From the NCBI GenBank assembly GCA_043816965.1, contig JBDRHK010000103.1:1-23157 (forward strand): a stretch of DNA of 23,157 bases. Reading direction: 5' to 3'. Below are positions 12,001 through 18,000 of the stretch, piece after piece. Source of the stretch: Candidatus Iainarchaeum sp. GTDB taxonomy: Archaea; Iainarchaeota; Iainarchaeia; Iainarchaeales; JAFCCJ01. Made by a program: the position numbers. How positions within the stretch are numbered: position 1 is the stretch's first letter; the number at the start of each line of letters is the position of its first letter.

Positions 12001-15000
12001 GCACCTACGCCTGAAGCGCATTTCAGATTCCCAGCAAGAGTTATTTTAAGGGGCGTTTTCTCAACATCAATTTTCAGGAATTTTATAATAAGGTCCAGGC
12101 CTCTCGTTATTTCACCCTGCTTTTTTGTTTTGTATCCTTCAATTGCGGGCCTGTTGTCAATTAATTCCAAGCCCTTTCCCCCCTGCTTCACTTCCGCAGT
12201 AGTGGTGTCAGAAATAGCGGAAGCGATTGCGGGAAGGCCGTAGACAACAAAATGCTCGCCAAAAAGAATAGTTTTCCCGTAACCGGTTCCTTTTCCCATT
12301 TGATTGCCCCCTTAATAAATCTAATAATAGGCTGAACTATTATCCAACCACTTTGAACTTGTAACCGTAAGCGATTGCCCCTTCAGGATCGTTGTCTGAA
12401 ATTTTACGAAAGACTTTTTCAACCTTTGCGCCGAATTTCACCTTTTCCTTTTCGCTGTCCACAATCTGGCTCAAAACCTTCACCTTATTTCCCAATTCAA
12501 TAAGCGCAAGGAAGTAGGGTGTTTCTGTGTCAAATCCCTCTGGGCCGACAAAAACCTCGGTAAAGGAAATTATTTTGCCTTCTCTTGGCATGTTCTTTGG
12601 AACTAATTTCCCTTTTCTCCTGCAGTTTGCGCAAATTGTTCTCGGGGGGAAATATTCAGTCCCGCAGGTCTCGCATTTATTCCCCTCTAAATTGTATCTC
12701 TGGAAGTAGTTCCTCCACATCAATGGCAGTGCTGCATCAACCATCTTAAGCCCTCCTATACCCTGCTGTTGCCGGGCCTACGATTTTTCTTCGCTTCTTC
12801 CGAATTCTCCTCATTTCATCGCCTTGGAGTTTTCCGATCCTTCTTCCAAACAAATCATTGTACCTGCTAATACCTGGTGCATTTCCAAACCCAGCTCTTT
12901 CAGCTTCCAGGTAAAGATTGGCAAATTTGCCCTGTGATTCTCGGGAGCCTGTTTCCAAAAAAACAGCCAATGCCTTTCTTAGTTCTGAACGAAACCATTC
13001 CTCACTATTAATTGGTGCCATTCTAAGCCCTCCTCAGAATATGGATTGCGCAGGTTGCGCCGCTTCCGCCGATATTGTGGGTAAGGCCTATCTCCGCGCC
13101 CTTTACCTGCCTCTTGCCGGCATTTCCCTTCAAATGCTCGTAAATCTCCGCCGCCTGCTTTATTCCCGTTGCACCAACAGGATGGCCTGCTCCCTTAAGG
13201 CCCCCGGAAGGGTTTATTGGAATGCTCCCATTCAATTTAGTTTCCCCTCTCTCAACAGCTGCCCCACCTTCCCCTTTCTTGAAAAATCCCAAATCCTCTA
13301 TTGCGAAAATTTCCGCAATGCTGAAACAGTCATGGACCTCGGCAACATCAATATCCTTTACTCCAATCCCTGCCATCCTATATGCGCTTTCGGCGGCAAA
13401 CTTTGTTGCCGCAAGTTCTGTCAGTTTCTTTCTCCCGGCAAGTGCAAGCGTGTCAGAGGCCTGTGCTGAAGCGATTATTTCAATAGGATTATCAACCAAT
13501 TCTCTCGCCTTTTTGGTTTCGCACAATAATACAACAGCTGCCCCGTCTGAAATCGGCGAGCAATCAAGCAATTTCAAGGGGGAGGCAATATACCCTGATT
13601 TCATAACATCATCAACTGTAATCTCCCTGTGGAAATGCGCATTTGGGTTAAGCATTGCATTTTTGTGGTTTTTCACAGAGCACATTGCCATCTGCTCCTC
13701 AGTGGTGCCAAAATCATGCATATGCCTTCTTGCCAGTAAAGCATAAAGTGCTGGAAATGTCGCCCCATGGAAGAGCTCAGTTTCCTGGTCGCCTGCACCG
13801 CCAAGCGCAAATGCCGCCCTGTCAGTGCTTATCTCAGTCATTTTCTCAACACCTGCAACTGCAACAATATCGTGTGCGCCTGAAGCAACAGAAAGGAATC
13901 CTGCCCTCAAAGTAACACCGCCTGAGGCGCATGCCGCCTCCAGCCTTGTGGATGGGATTGGATTCAGGCCTAATTGGTCGGCAATCAATGCACCAATATG
14001 CTCCTGGCCAATAAACCTTCCTGAAGCCATGCATCCGCCATAGGCAGCCTCAATATCCCCGCCCTCAATTCCGGAATCATGTATTGCCTTTATTCCTGCC
14101 TCCGCTATAAGGTCCCTGAAACTTTTATTCCAGTACTCGCCGAAGCGGGTGAGACCAGCGCCGATTATCGATACACTACGCACCCTCAGCCACCTCATAA
14201 AAACTATTTGGATCTAATTTATTTTCAAGAATTAGTTTTCTTTCCTGAATGGTAGTATGTGGCGGACAAAACCCAAATTTCTTCCATACTAAATATTTTG
14301 TCATATGTTTTGGATTCCGAAAAGAGATTTTATCCATCCATTTTTCTAATTGTTTATAACCTATAATTTTAAGGGCATATTGCTTATTCTTTTCTTTTCT
14401 TATCTCAACTCTTTTAATTGGCTTAAATCCCATTTTCTTAAGTATGCTTGCTGTTTGATCAATTATTTTTTCTGAATTTAAACTCCCAGCTATGTAAGGG
14501 TAATAATGCCTATTCTTATGTTTCTTTTGGAAGGACAAGCTAAAATCAGTATCAAATAATCCTCTAATAAAAGAGCCCTTTATCAACTCGTTTCCAGACT
14601 CAAGAATTTGCGCAGGTATTTCCACAATACTCGCTTTTTTGCCCAGGGGGAATCCCAGGCATTTATTCTTATAAGTGTAGATTGCTTTTGAAGAGGCTAC
14701 AAAACCAAATGTTTTGCCCCCAGATAACTTACGCAATTTTATATCTAGATTATATATTCTTTTGAAAATTTTATGAACATAATCTTTGTAGAAATCTGTT
14801 TCTTGGTTTGCGTCCCCAGCTAAACAGTAAAGATATCCTGTCTTCTTTTTTGCGTAAAGGGAGCCATCTCCAGCATGCCATCCTGCTTCTTCGGCAACTA
14901 ATTCATTAATTTTTTCTGGGATGGTTACTCCCCTAGAAATATCCTGAAGACTAAATTCCACTCCCTTAAAAGAAATTTTTTCTTTGTTACATTTATATTT

Positions 15001-18000
15001 CCCAGATTTCCTTTTTAAATCCTCCAAAGAATCAAAATACAAATTTATAATTTTGTGTGATTTATAGCCAGATTTCTTAGCGATTTCTCTAGCAGAAGAT
15101 CTATGTGCCAATTCTTTGGTTGCTTCAATTAGTTTTTCTTGTGGAGATTTTATCTCAATACCAATCGAGCCAAATAGATTCTTTCTTGTCCCAAAATAGT
15201 AATTAATGGCTTTTCTTGATTTAAACCCTGCGTCTTTAGCTATTTTACTCGAAGACGCTCTCAAGCCATTTTTCTTTGCAGAAGATTGTATCAATTGTTT
15301 AGCATTGTCCATAAAATAAGAAGAATTTACGTTATTTAAATTCGTTTCTAGAGGGTAGGTTTCCGGTGCCAACTCCCCAATAATGCTTACGCTTCTCATT
15401 TTCTCGTCCTCCAATAAACAAAGCCATAGGAAACTGCAAGAATAATAATCAAATCAACAAAAAATGCAATAAAATCAGGATTGGGACAGGGGAATAAAGT
15501 GGCAAGATTAGAGGCAGGTGGTGGACATACACCATTTACAAGATATTTTAGTGGTAATCCTCTATCAAACTCATTCCCATAAATAAATGGCGAAAGAAAA
15601 TGCAATACCAAAAGTGTCCCAATTGCCAAAGCAATTGCCATCTTCAGCCGTTTTCTGTTATACAGAATACAACTCCATAGATAAGCACTAAAAATCGAAA
15701 AAACAATAAAAAGCCCTAGGTTTAGTGGAGAAGAAAAATATAAATAACTAAACAAGTCAATCTTAAAACTAAATAAAAGTATGTTTAGTATTATGGTGCT
15801 TAAGACCCAAAAAATAAAGAAAACAAAATTTATTATCAGCATACTTGATAAACTCAAAATAACGCATGCCCCATAAGCCGGCTCTCTGCACAAGTCAGTA
15901 TAACTCACTAGAAAAAGGACATTAGCTAAAACAATAATCAAAGCACTAAGAATAATTTTTTCCCGGTTGGGCCTGAAAAATTCCTTCCAATCCATTTCCA
16001 TCACAAACTCTTCAGTTTCTTCCTGGCAATTACATACTCGGAATAATCAATGTACTCCTTTTTACCAATCATTTCACTCACAGGAAATTTATTCTTGTTC
16101 TTTGCGAGGTTCTTTGTTGCGGTAATGCAGAATGCGTCGCTCCCTGCACCTGAACCATAGCTGATTGCCAGAATTTTATCGCCGGGCTTTGCGACATCAA
16201 GGATTGCCGTCAGGCCAAGCATTGTTGCCCCGCTGTAGGTGTTCCCGATTATCGGTGTGAGGAGCCCGGTTTCAACCTTCTCCTTTGGAAAGCCGAGTGT
16301 TTTTGCTACGCGAAGGGGAAATTTCCCATTTGGCTGGTGGAAAACCGCATAATCATAATCCTCTGCCTTTGTTTTTGTCTTCTTAAAAATCCCCTCGGCG
16401 GCACTTACAACATGCCTGAAATATGCCGGCTCCCCTGTAAATCTCCCTGCATGGCGCGGAAATTCCGCATGCTGCCTTCTCCAGAAATCAGGGGTGTCTG
16501 TTGTAAATGAAAATGTGCAATCCAAGGAGGCGATAATTTCATCCTTTTTTGTCCCGATAATAAAACCAGCCCCACCAGAGGCCGCGGTGAATTCCAAAGC
16601 ATCATTCGGCCTTCCCTGTGCGGTGTCTGCACCAATTGCCAAACCATAATCAATCATTCCTGATTCAGTCATTCCCATAACCATCTGCATTCCTGCAGTT
16701 CCAGCCTTGCATGCAAATTCCAAATCAGCAGCAGTCAATTCAGGCCCTGCATTTATCGCATCAACAACAATGGATGCTGTTGGCTTAACGGCATAGGGGT
16801 GGCTTTCAGAACCAACATAAACTGCGCCTATTTTTTGCGCGTCAATTCCGCAATTTTCAACAGCCCTCCTTGCAATCTCAACAGAAATTGTTGCGCTGTC
16901 CTCATCAAAACTCGCCACGGCTTTTTCCTTGACATTCAGCCCTGCGGAAATCTTTTTCCCGTCCTTCTTCCAGACCCTGGCAATTTCCTCAACAGTAATC
17001 CTTCTTAGGGGAACATATGCCCCATAACCAACAATTCCGGAAGTCATTTCTTCATCTCCTCAACTATTTCTTTAGCTCTCACAAGCCTTATATTTTTTTC
17101 CTCGATCATCTTCGCAGCGACTAAATCAGCAGCATTTCCTTCGGCACCTGCCGAAATTGCGATGTTTTTTGCGTGCAATTTCATATGCCCTTTCTGTATT
17201 CCCTCTGTAGAGAGGGCCCTTAAAGCGGCAAAATTCTGCGCTAAACCAACTGCAGCAACCACTTCCCCCAATTCCTGCGCACTCTTTACCCCTAAAATTT
17301 TCAGTGAAATCCCTGCAACAGGATTAATTTTCGTTGCGCCCCCTACAATCCCTAATTGTACTGGAATCTCAATCTCCCCAATTAAATTTCCTTCACCATC
17401 TTTCGAGTATTTTGTAATAGGTTTGTAACTGCCAAGCGAGGCATATGAATGCACCCCTGCCTCAAATGCCCTCCAGTCATTTCCTGTGGCAACAACAACT
17501 GCATCCATTCCGTTCATCGCCCCCTTGTTATGGGTTGTGCACCTGTATTTGTCGGCTTTCGCTATTTCATAGGCCTCAATAACCAAATCAACTGTTCCCT
17601 CTCCAATCTTTTCTTTATTCCAGACTGTTTTCGCTTTTGCAATCCTCTCTGTCGCCAAATTTGAAATAATTTTCAATCTTGCCTTCCCCCCGGAAATTTC
17701 CTCAAGTTCTGGCGCGATTTTCTCGCACATTGTGTTCACTGCATTTGCACCCATTGCATCCCTTACATCAACAAGCAAATGAACCTGGATGAATTTTCCA
17801 ATTTCATTAACCTCAATTTTCTTTGCCCCTCCTCCGAGGTTTATGAGTGTGGAATCCTCAGAATTCGCGGTTCTCAGCAGTTCCTTCTCCTTGGATTTAA
17901 TTTCCTCAACAGCTTTTGCGGAATCATTCACCCCAACCAAATGAATCTGCCCTATCATAATTGGGTCTGTTGATTCTGTCTCAAATCCTGAGGAGAGTTT

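Follow-up and report, generated by a model that had tools for sequence, protein, structure and literature searches.

The genome of Candidatus Iainarchaeum sp. (G000) carries a LAGLIDADG endonuclease open reading frame (ORF) within the first codons of a gene of the archaeal lipid pathway, encoding acetoacetyl-CoA thiolase, on the minus strand of contig JBDRHK010000103.1 (the window analyzed comprises 23,157 nucleotides, and positions are counted along the contig). The element is probably a free-standing, two-motif LAGLIDADG homing cassette specialized on the first codons of this archaeal thiolase and inserted after codon 8. The basis for this assignment is a presence/absence polymorphism, the architecture of the locus and its conservation, the fold, the catalytic residues, and a locally raised divergence. 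The parts of the locus are as follows.

15407 to 15412, minus strand: native thiolase Shine-Dalgarno sequence GGAGGA, now 5′ of the endonuclease ORF, 7 nt before ATG 15399.
14176 to 15399, minus strand: whole endonuclease ORF, 407 codons plus TAG (ATG at 15399, stop TAG at 14178-14176).
15375 to 15399, minus strand: old thiolase start and codons MRSVSIIG, now the endonuclease N terminus (24/25 nt as in the thiolase start of the congener G001).
15313 to 15374, minus strand: linker of low conservation, joining the captured codons to an internal Met that is itself conserved (residue 30); open frame and predicted disorder.
14995 to 15309, minus strand: predicted helical domain at the N terminus, residues 31-135, containing a pair of helix-turn-helix-like repeats (model and weak TetR-type matches).
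14200 to 14922, minus strand: two-motif LAGLIDADG endonuclease core, residues 160-400 (Pfam LAGLIDADG_3, Foldseek, conserved residues).
14191 to 14196, minus strand: new Shine-Dalgarno-like motif GAGGTG for the thiolase, within the endonuclease C-terminal tail, 7 nt upstream of GTG.
14176 to 14183, minus strand: stop-start overlap GTGCGTAG, combining the endonuclease TAG and the new thiolase GTG, as read from the sequence.
14124 to 14183, minus strand: replacement thiolase 5′ end that appears to be borne by the cassette, clear for codons 1-12 and with raised divergence to about codon 20.
13023 to 14183, minus strand: acetoacetyl-CoA thiolase gene, from GTG (Pfam Thiolase_C_1, 9.6e-44; Thiolase_N, 8.3e-27).

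The initial annotation had proposed that the endonuclease ORF captures the old thiolase start, and indeed it opens with MRSVSIIG at 15399 and reads MRSVSIIG-ELAPE..., beginning with the thiolase start and 8 thiolase codons. The new ribosome-binding site and new thiolase start (GTG 14183-14181) that it had placed in the cassette tail can both be read in the sequence; from this GTG the thiolase resumes as (M)RSVSIIGAGLT, and in an alignment of 78 related alleles the same position is the start codon in most. The thiolase gene stays whole because the cassette brings a differently spelled replacement start. This layout would account for start-codon miscalls of both genes in these genomes: ATG 14198 is taken as the thiolase start by the gene caller, and Met 30 as that of the endonuclease in the database gene call P0001.

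In the congener G001 the cassette is missing, and BLAST against this genome bears out the earlier claim of colinear flanks, with 1,206 nt (14169-15374) unmatched in G000, the figure first given. Measured start to start, the extra DNA amounts to 1,216 nt, because 10 nt of G001 are covered by both flank alignments. The old copy had been described as identical to the sister sequence at 25/25 nt; it matches at 24/25, the start being ATG in G000 and GTG in G001, and no differences (0/21 nt) fall in codons 2-8. The new copy differs from G001 at 9/21 nt over the same codons with an unchanged peptide, which exceeds all 17 inter-family comparisons with G001 (maximum 8). Across codons 2-12, 9 of the 11 codons carry silent changes, exactly those originally listed, compared with 93/241 conserved degenerate codons changed in the thiolase background; the signal in this pair is moderate (Fisher p = 0.0055), such a density being attained in 2/243 sliding windows along the thiolase, and 33-nt windows with at least 12 differences occurring at 9/284 positions along the gene. 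A second presence/absence pair within one genus, G173 and G004, also has colinear flanks. There the endonuclease-side copy matches the empty G004 allele at 13/15 nt, and codons 2-12 of the thiolase show 7/8 changed against a background of 58/209 (p = 0.001). No DNA repeat was detectable between the old and new start copies in G000, which have no common seed of 7 nt or more.

The spelling of the two copies follows a pattern across loci. On the endonuclease side, codon 2 reads AGA or AGG in 6/6 loci with DNA, and AGA/AGG is found in 22/24 endonuclease-free xRSVS alleles; the thiolase restart has CGT AGT at codons 2-3 in 5/5 carrier genomes, from five families, and CGA in L140. Replacement codons 6-8 correspond to the order-wide consensus and not to a respelled local allele, and the replaced tract also includes amino-acid changes in G173 and at gatB. 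The phrase "synonymously recoded" in the initial annotation is thus apt in part: the changes relative to G001 are silent, but the replacement start travels with the cassette, and the tract seems silent because the N-terminal peptide is conserved. Given the CGT AGT common to carriers, the consensus codons 6-8, and the amino-acid changes in G173 and at gatB, the tract looks more like a foreign gene start borne by the cassette than like local recoding. When 77 alleles were ranked by identity to the G000 5′ tract, no donor was identified, since the endonuclease-carrying alleles rank only 2, 4, 6, and 13. The mean distance of the new copy to endonuclease-free alleles is 6.8; one endonuclease-free allele, L056, exceeds this at 8.0, and G001 itself is at 6.06, which weighs against the homing-cassette reading. 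L056 has CGT AGC without an endonuclease; it was considered as a cassette footprint and rejected, as an unrelated 62-aa ORF lies within the 400 nt upstream, where tblastn at E ≤ 1e-5 found no endonuclease remnant.

Sequence and structure prediction identify the element as a free-standing, monomeric, two-motif LAGLIDADG homing endonuclease with putative cleavage activity. A Pfam search matched PF14528 (LAGLIDADG_3; 24.3 bits against a cut-off of 22.5, E = 3.9e-5). The AlphaFold2 model (pLDDT 86.9), together with Foldseek, gives two alpha-beta-beta-alpha-beta-beta-alpha half-domains in a single chain, the Foldseek matches including I-Tsp061I and I-DmoI (TMt about 0.75) and the TliVMA intein endonuclease (E = 2e-9). 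Each of the two LAGLIDADG motifs is closed by a conserved acidic residue: G177-D178-G179 is invariant in 11/11 sequences and D283/D285 are nearly invariant (at least 90%). We take the acidic residues at these two sites to be catalytic; they are kept, along with full length, in 9/10 homologs. The N-terminal domain, whose helices are modeled at pLDDT of about 87-93, has a TetR_N match below the cut-off (E = 0.0018) and weak TetR-type PDB matches, and is probably an extra DNA-binding module. The linker is predicted to be disordered (pLDDT 30-53). In 6/6 loci its frame contains 0 in-frame stops, compared with 1-5 in each other frame, and the frame is open even though the old ATG and the internal Met are anywhere from 26 to 38 codons apart across the six. 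The conserved internal Met near residue 30, used by P0001, could be the real endonuclease start.

The element lies directly 5′ of the thiolase in 5/196 genomes of the order, distributed over five families, and likewise in three metagenome contigs. An MRSV, MRGV, or MRSI opening is present in 9/10 full-length homologs at 46-63% identity, the tenth being cut off by a contig end. Purine-rich, Shine-Dalgarno-like motifs precede the new start by 5-8 nt in G133, G009, G012, G173, and L140, and the ATGCGTAG overlap recurs in G133 and G009. The C termini of 6/10 complete homologs end in x-Ala-stop, as a stop-start overlap of the ATGCGTAG type requires; in G012 and G173 the endonuclease ORF ends earlier, at TAA. 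The G173 endonuclease copy is frameshifted and its thiolase is intact. The architecture first described at the G000 locus is real: the element captures the old start and provides a new ribosome-binding site and start together with codons of different spelling. The layout is conserved in independent lineages. Its occurrence in 5/196 genomes might also stem from ancient vertical inheritance accompanied by numerous losses.

Two further cassettes had been likened to that of the thiolase. At dnaK, 978 nt of G000 correspond to 15 nt in G001, 6/7 shared codons are silently changed, and GAGGAG stands upstream of the new start, all as reported; over codons 2-12, 8/9 are changed compared with 161/536 (p = 0.0005), which makes this, beside the two thiolase pairs, a third independent comparison with dense change in these codons. 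The dnaK cassette does not do the same as the thiolase one, however: AAAATGAG is all that its endonuclease ORF has in common with the old dnaK start, and no dnaK codons are kept. The insertion at the methionyl-tRNA synthetase (MetRS) gene was likewise recovered (1,483 nt in G000, 60 nt in G001). Of these three genes, start-codon capture with retained codons is shown for the thiolase alone. Among 17 free-standing endonuclease ORFs of G000, the thiolase case is the only one whose own N-terminal peptide is repeated at the 3′ junction (score 34); none of the other 16 has such a repeat (best score 26). A general rule that endonuclease genes abut gene starts was rejected, a same-strand start lying within 10 nt of the stop in just 4/17 (thiolase, gatB, dnaK, and one 117-aa ORF).

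We considered whether the element might be an immobile relic that entered once long ago, was inherited vertically and frequently lost, and no longer homes, so that the two copies differ through elapsed time only. Such a history would suit the modest identity of the homologs (46-64%), the frameshifted copy in G173, the absence of an identified donor among the 77 alleles, and the small number of carrier genomes. We regard it as unlikely, given that presence differs within the same-genus pairs G000/G001 and G173/G004, that the endonuclease-side copy still matches the empty allele (24/25 and 13/15 nt), that precise loss would require an empty donor allele, that length and catalytic residues are preserved in 9/10 homologs, and that five carriers in five families imply very many losses. 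Much less likely still is a domesticated regulator, a helix-turn-helix-bearing protein that persists because it benefits the host by regulating either the mevalonate operon or thiolase translation: the helical N-terminal domain with its weak TetR-like similarity and the tight translational linkage with the thiolase would suit that role, but the protein was not found in 191/196 genomes of the order, G001 included, is broken in G173 beside an intact thiolase, and retains its catalytic aspartates. We give virtually no credence to a single gene product (an intein, intron, or programmed frameshift in the thiolase) or to an assembly artefact, despite an ORF that opens with thiolase codons and abuts the thiolase. 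A stop ends the ORF (TAG 14176-14178) and the thiolase goes on in another frame; no Hint/intein Pfam match was found at E ≤ 0.01, and 13500-16200 gave 0 Rfam matches at E ≤ 1, which speaks against a group I/II intron core around the ORF. The same layout recurs in five genomes and three metagenome contigs, and a 151-nt contig of run X1, which may be the source sample, covers 14095-14245 at 100% identity; the Logan contigs that fall on the stretch are all short, and they showed no joints.

A separate question is why the replacement spelling persists. Spelling differences may plausibly shield the carrier from its own enzyme. A typical LAGLIDADG site is 22 bp. The insertion point is 10-20 nt away from the cassette-specific changes in codons 2-5, which would fall at or beyond the edge of such a site centered on that point; this counts against the homing-cassette reading. 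The spelling might instead be kept for other reasons, by blocking direct-repeat deletion and because CGT AGT makes the in-frame TAG and the stop-start overlap. The missing seed of at least 7 nt between the copies, the TAG inside CGTAGT in G000, G133, and G009, and the x-Ala-stop tails of 6/10 homologs argue for these functions; G012 and G173, on the other hand, keep CGT AGT though their endonuclease ORFs stop earlier at TAA. We consider this explanation possible but rather doubtful, and it is compatible with immunity, as both can act together.

Under the homing-cassette reading, the native thiolase ribosome-binding site, start, and first codons would now open the endonuclease ORF and be read through a disordered, always in-frame linker. 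The endonuclease tail would encode the new Shine-Dalgarno sequence, and its stop would overlap the new thiolase start (GTGCGTAG), so that terminating ribosomes could restart on the thiolase. The enzyme would cut endonuclease-free thiolase alleles at the highly conserved start region, and repair from the carrier would copy the endonuclease gene plus the attached replacement 5′ end. The carrier itself would be uncut, as the cassette interrupts the site in its old copy and the spelling of the site differs in its new one. More broadly, we tentatively propose an archaeal LAGLIDADG lineage that homes into the start regions of essential chromosomal genes without an intron or intein, is translated as an N-terminal fusion from the host ribosome-binding site and start, hands ribosomes back via ATGCGTAG, and carries a foreign, cleavage-immune start. 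If true, homing endonucleases need no self-splicing carrier to colonize essential protein genes on cellular chromosomes, since they repair the gene at the DNA level with a replacement start; the element would parasitize translation as well as the genome, and through it short foreign 5′ segments of genes would pass from one DPANN lineage to another. Such cassettes could explain short mosaic 5′ ends in housekeeping genes, provide a source of natural meganucleases that probably target gene starts of very high conservation, and offer a compact natural case of translational coupling.

A search of the literature on DPANN LAGLIDADG proteins, Iainarchaeota/Diapherotrites endonucleases, and archaeal intronless homing, within journals open without subscription, found no such element among the papers listed. 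The monomeric archaeal enzymes I-DmoI and I-Tsp061I, encoded in rRNA introns, and the intein domains TliVMA and PI-PfuI share the fold predicted here, two motifs, and conserved aspartates. They reside on introns, which excise themselves from RNA, or on inteins, which do so from protein, whereas the thiolase cassette has neither and brings a replacement start, and its enzyme has an extra 100-residue helical N-terminal domain. Free-standing endonucleases of T4-type phages are HNH or GIY-YIG enzymes, usually encoded between genes, and we know of no case among them in which the start codon of the target is captured or its first codons are fused in frame to the endonuclease. Their genes lie beside or inside conserved genes, as here, are mobilized with flanking DNA, and leave the carrier protected by target sequence differences, as we propose for the thiolase cassette. 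The process is termed 'intronless homing' (MobE and Seg proteins; PMC2790892). The closest known case appears to be that of the fungal mitochondrial mORF 'gene hybrids', which replace gene ends, as in atp6 of Allomyces macrogynus and atp6, atp9, cox2, and nad3 of Glomus sp. (PMC3630166, PMC4019555). In these accounts, a LAGLIDADG (or, in fungi, also GIY-YIG) ORF lies inside a protein gene without an intron or intein, and one gene terminus is duplicated (PMC3630166, PMC4019555). The native copy resembles that of a sister taxon, whereas the one attached to the body of the gene, interpreted as foreign, diverges in DNA but is nearly identical in protein; the ORF may also continue the reading frame of the native part. 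The fungal elements described there replace the 3′, C-terminal end of genes in organelle genomes, whereas the thiolase cassette replaces the 5′ end of a chromosomal archaeal gene, and would therefore take over the ribosome-binding site and start codon and have to supply a new start, one that overlaps its own stop.

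The thiolase gene lies in a mevalonate-pathway operon on the minus strand of the window, in a genome (G000) of 1.34 Mb and 42% G+C. Among the named members of the operon the Pfam scan was limited to the thiolase, the ChsH2-type protein and the endonuclease, and the remaining names were read from translations:

17044-18309, minus strand, HMG-CoA reductase-like ORF (read from translation)
16001-17047, minus strand, HMG-CoA synthase-like ORF (read from translation)
15396-16004, minus strand, membrane ORF of 202 amino acids (read from translation)
14176-15399, minus strand, endonuclease ORF (Pfam-scanned)
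13023-14183, minus strand, thiolase (Pfam-scanned)
12746-13021, minus strand, 91-amino-acid ORF without a Pfam match at E ≤ 0.01, separating the thiolase from the ChsH2-type (DUF35) gene
12340-12744, minus strand, zinc-ribbon/OB protein of ChsH2 (DUF35) type (Pfam-scanned)
11355-12299, minus strand, mevalonate-kinase-like ORF (read from translation)

The endonuclease ORF opens at ATG 15399 with MRSVSIIG, runs on into unrelated sequence and ends at TAG 14178-14176. The thiolase restarts in another frame at GTG 14183-14181, 5 bases upstream of that stop, to read (M)RSVSIIGAGLT and the remaining thiolase; a GAGGTG within the last endonuclease codons lies 7 nt upstream of this GTG. In the same-genus genome G001, which lacks the cassette, HMG-CoA synthase is followed by a shorter membrane ORF and then by the thiolase with no intervening endonuclease. 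The membrane ORF of G001 (96 amino acids) aligns with the C-terminal part of that of G000 (202 amino acids). In two other carriers, G012 and G173, this ORF is absent and the endonuclease directly follows HMG-CoA synthase, and in the carrier G133 (locus L019) a DUF35-type gene overlaps the thiolase directly at its 3′ side.

The initial annotation put the cassette at 1,206 nt and the identity of the captured (old) thiolase start to G001 at 25/25. The first figure equals the BLAST gap, whereas the start-to-start distance is 1,216 nt, the flank alignments overlapping by 10 nt in G001; for the second we found 24/25, the sole difference being ATG in G000 versus GTG in G001. The silent change reported for nine codons of the restart was reproduced: in codons 2-12, 9/11 codons (12 nt) differ from G001, against 93/241 conserved degenerate codons elsewhere in the gene (Fisher p = 0.0055), in thiolases that are 82% identical overall. 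Only four multi-base synonymous switches occur in the whole gene, two of them within codons 2-12 (AGA to CGT and AGC to TCG). No DNA repeat was detectable between the old and new copies. The gene caller's thiolase start at ATG 14198-14196 is likely an annotation problem, most related alleles starting at the position of GTG 14183, and the same is likely true of the start at Met 30 (15310-15312) in P0001, the database protein call for the endonuclease.

The endonuclease matches Pfam LAGLIDADG_3 above threshold. An AlphaFold2 model built from 11 homologues (pLDDT 86.9) has a disordered segment (residues 1-30), a helical domain (31-135) and a two-lobed core (160-400), for which Foldseek returned the archaeal LAGLIDADG enzymes I-Tsp061I and I-DmoI (TMt about 0.75) and the TliVMA intein endonuclease (E = 2e-9). 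Homologues keep the residues of the GDG and DTD motifs, and the catalytic core is intact in sequence and modelled fold. The ORF is neither an intein nor an intron, since it ends in a stop codon, the thiolase lies in a different frame, and there is no Hint match and no Rfam match at E ≤ 1.

A protein search identified 127 relatives, 10 of which (46-63% identity; one cut by a contig end) are full-length or retain the N-terminal domain. Their N-termini read MRSVSIAED, MRSVSIQDS, MRSISIIGLPE, MRSVSIIESPE, MRGVSVTED, (leader)MRSVSVSPA, MRSVQTS, MRSVSIIGVGF and MRSVSANF. This type of endonuclease lies directly 5′ of the thiolase in 5/196 genomes of the order (G000, G133, G009, G012 and G173), each from a different family, and in three JGI metagenome contigs (L140, L142 and a near-copy of G009); the layout is thus conserved beyond a single genome. 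In all six loci with DNA, the 26-38 codons between the old ATG and a conserved internal Met contain no in-frame stop, versus one to five stops in each other frame, which argues that the old thiolase start continues to serve for reading the endonuclease; P0001 starts instead at the internal Met, which may also be the start in use.

The spelling of the restart is shared as well. In 5/5 carrier genomes it reads [A/G]TG CGT AGT GTx TCx, and the metagenome contig L140 has CGA GGA, whereas the endonuclease-side copies in the carriers and L140 read ATG AGA/AGG. Among 78 thiolase loci surveyed, 27 alleles begin xRSVS: the 24 without an endonuclease use AGA or AGG in 22 cases and CGN in two, and the three with one all use CGT AGT. 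Adding G000 and G173 gives 5/5 versus 2/24 (hypergeometric p about 2e-4, calculated by hand for lineages that are not independent). CGTAGT includes the TAG stop of the endonuclease in G000, G133 and G009, and the x-Ala-stop tail that this overlap requires is found in 6/10 homologues. In every carrier the new start is preceded, at 5-8 nt, by a purine-rich motif that the tail residues past a conserved FY encode. The replacement start is, on this sequence evidence, part of the cassette.

The changed codons could be host codons recoded in place or a start of foreign origin, and we compared alleles encoding RSVSIIG over the 21 nt of codons 2-8. The old copy of G000 differs from G001 at 0/21 nt and the new copy at 9/21. 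G001 differs from 17 other endonuclease-free alleles at 3-8 positions, 153 pairs of such alleles differ by a mean of 4.4, and the new copy differs from the 18 by a mean of 6.8; the endonuclease-free L056 is more distant still (mean 8.0 from the others). Against the endonuclease-free consensus, ATG AGA AGC GTT TCA ATA ATC GGC, the new copy is off at five positions in codons 2-5 and identical in codons 6-8; in these last codons lineage-specific states are common to G001 and the old copy. Identity between G000 and G001 is 64% over nt 4-48, a stretch in which alleles of several other families are closer to G000 than G001 is, and 84% over nt 49-330. The pattern recurs in a second same-genus pair: between the carrier G173 and its empty congener G004, 7/8 conserved codons are changed in codons 2-12 versus 58/209 elsewhere (p = 0.001), identity is lowered across about 40 codons with amino-acid changes included, and the old copy of G173 is 13/15 nt identical to G004. 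We therefore read the replacement tract as a putative foreign thiolase start travelling with the element, which would look silent because the N-terminal peptide is conserved.

Among the 18 RSVSIIG alleles, L056 (2501-2515, ATG CGT AGC GTA AGT), which comes from a complete genome, departs furthest from the rest. The allele may be a resistant one, or it may be a scar left when a cassette was lost; no trace of an endonuclease was detected upstream of its thiolase.

Alongside the observed polymorphism, architecture and its conservation, in-frame linker, stop-start overlap and local divergence, we propose that the enzyme would cut the highly conserved start region of empty thiolase alleles, of which nt 4-11 are nearly invariant among 18 alleles, and that repair would copy the endonuclease gene and the replacement start into the cut allele. 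A carrier would be immune because the upstream copy of its site is interrupted and the downstream copy is spelled differently. Translation of the endonuclease would begin at the host thiolase start, and that of the thiolase would occur by reinitiation. Cassette-specific changes lie 10-20 nt away from the insertion junction, so either the target site would be long, possibly via the extra helical domain, or cutting would be offset from the insertion point. In G173 (L022, contig C3, reverse strand 1486-2713) a frameshift, due to either decay or assembly error, interrupts the endonuclease at its second LAGLIDADG motif, and the cassette-borne thiolase start is intact; such a degenerate copy fits the usual invasion-and-decay cycle (PMC1654191).

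An iterated LAGLIDADG profile recovered 28 ORFs in G000: 17 of at most 600 amino acids (free-standing) and 11 of over 800, which are probably intein-bearing host proteins. The initial annotation had generalised start capture beyond the thiolase; of the 17 free-standing copies only 4 lie against a gene start, and host codons are kept by the thiolase copy alone, so the generalisation was borne out only in part. At dnaK, the described insertion (978 nt in G000 versus 15 nt in G001) and the GAGGAG upstream of the new start were recovered, and 8/9 conserved codons are changed in codons 2-12 versus 161/536 elsewhere (p = 0.0005). This insertion lengthens grpE by 9 codons. The grpE stop is removed by the cassette (L048, contig C71, 3795-3835), the end changing from ...VNKLN in G001 to ...VNNLENENRDSDNHG in G000, where grpE and the start of the endonuclease share 32 nt. 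At gatB (L050, contig C86, about 1786-1917) the endonuclease stop overlaps the gene start, and the first ~130 nt, which do not align to G001, specify another N-terminal peptide; here the replaced 5′ segment of foreign origin may be longer. The methionyl-tRNA synthetase insertion has the size first given (1,483 versus 60 nt); 3′ of that cassette (L049, contig C5, 3796-5263) the gene is 66% identical to G001, and the upstream flank 83-84%.

In the literature searched, no description of a replaced gene start on an archaeal chromosome was found. The nearest description (PMC3630166, PMC4019555) is that of mobile-ORF "gene hybrids" in fungal mitochondria (Allomyces atp6; Glomus atp6, atp9, cox2 and nad3). 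In these the native terminus resembles that of sister species, the DNA of the terminus in use has diverged and its protein sequence is conserved, and the mobile ORF sometimes shares the reading frame of the host gene. As described there, the fungal elements replace gene ends in organelles, whereas the thiolase cassette replaces a gene start on an archaeal chromosome.
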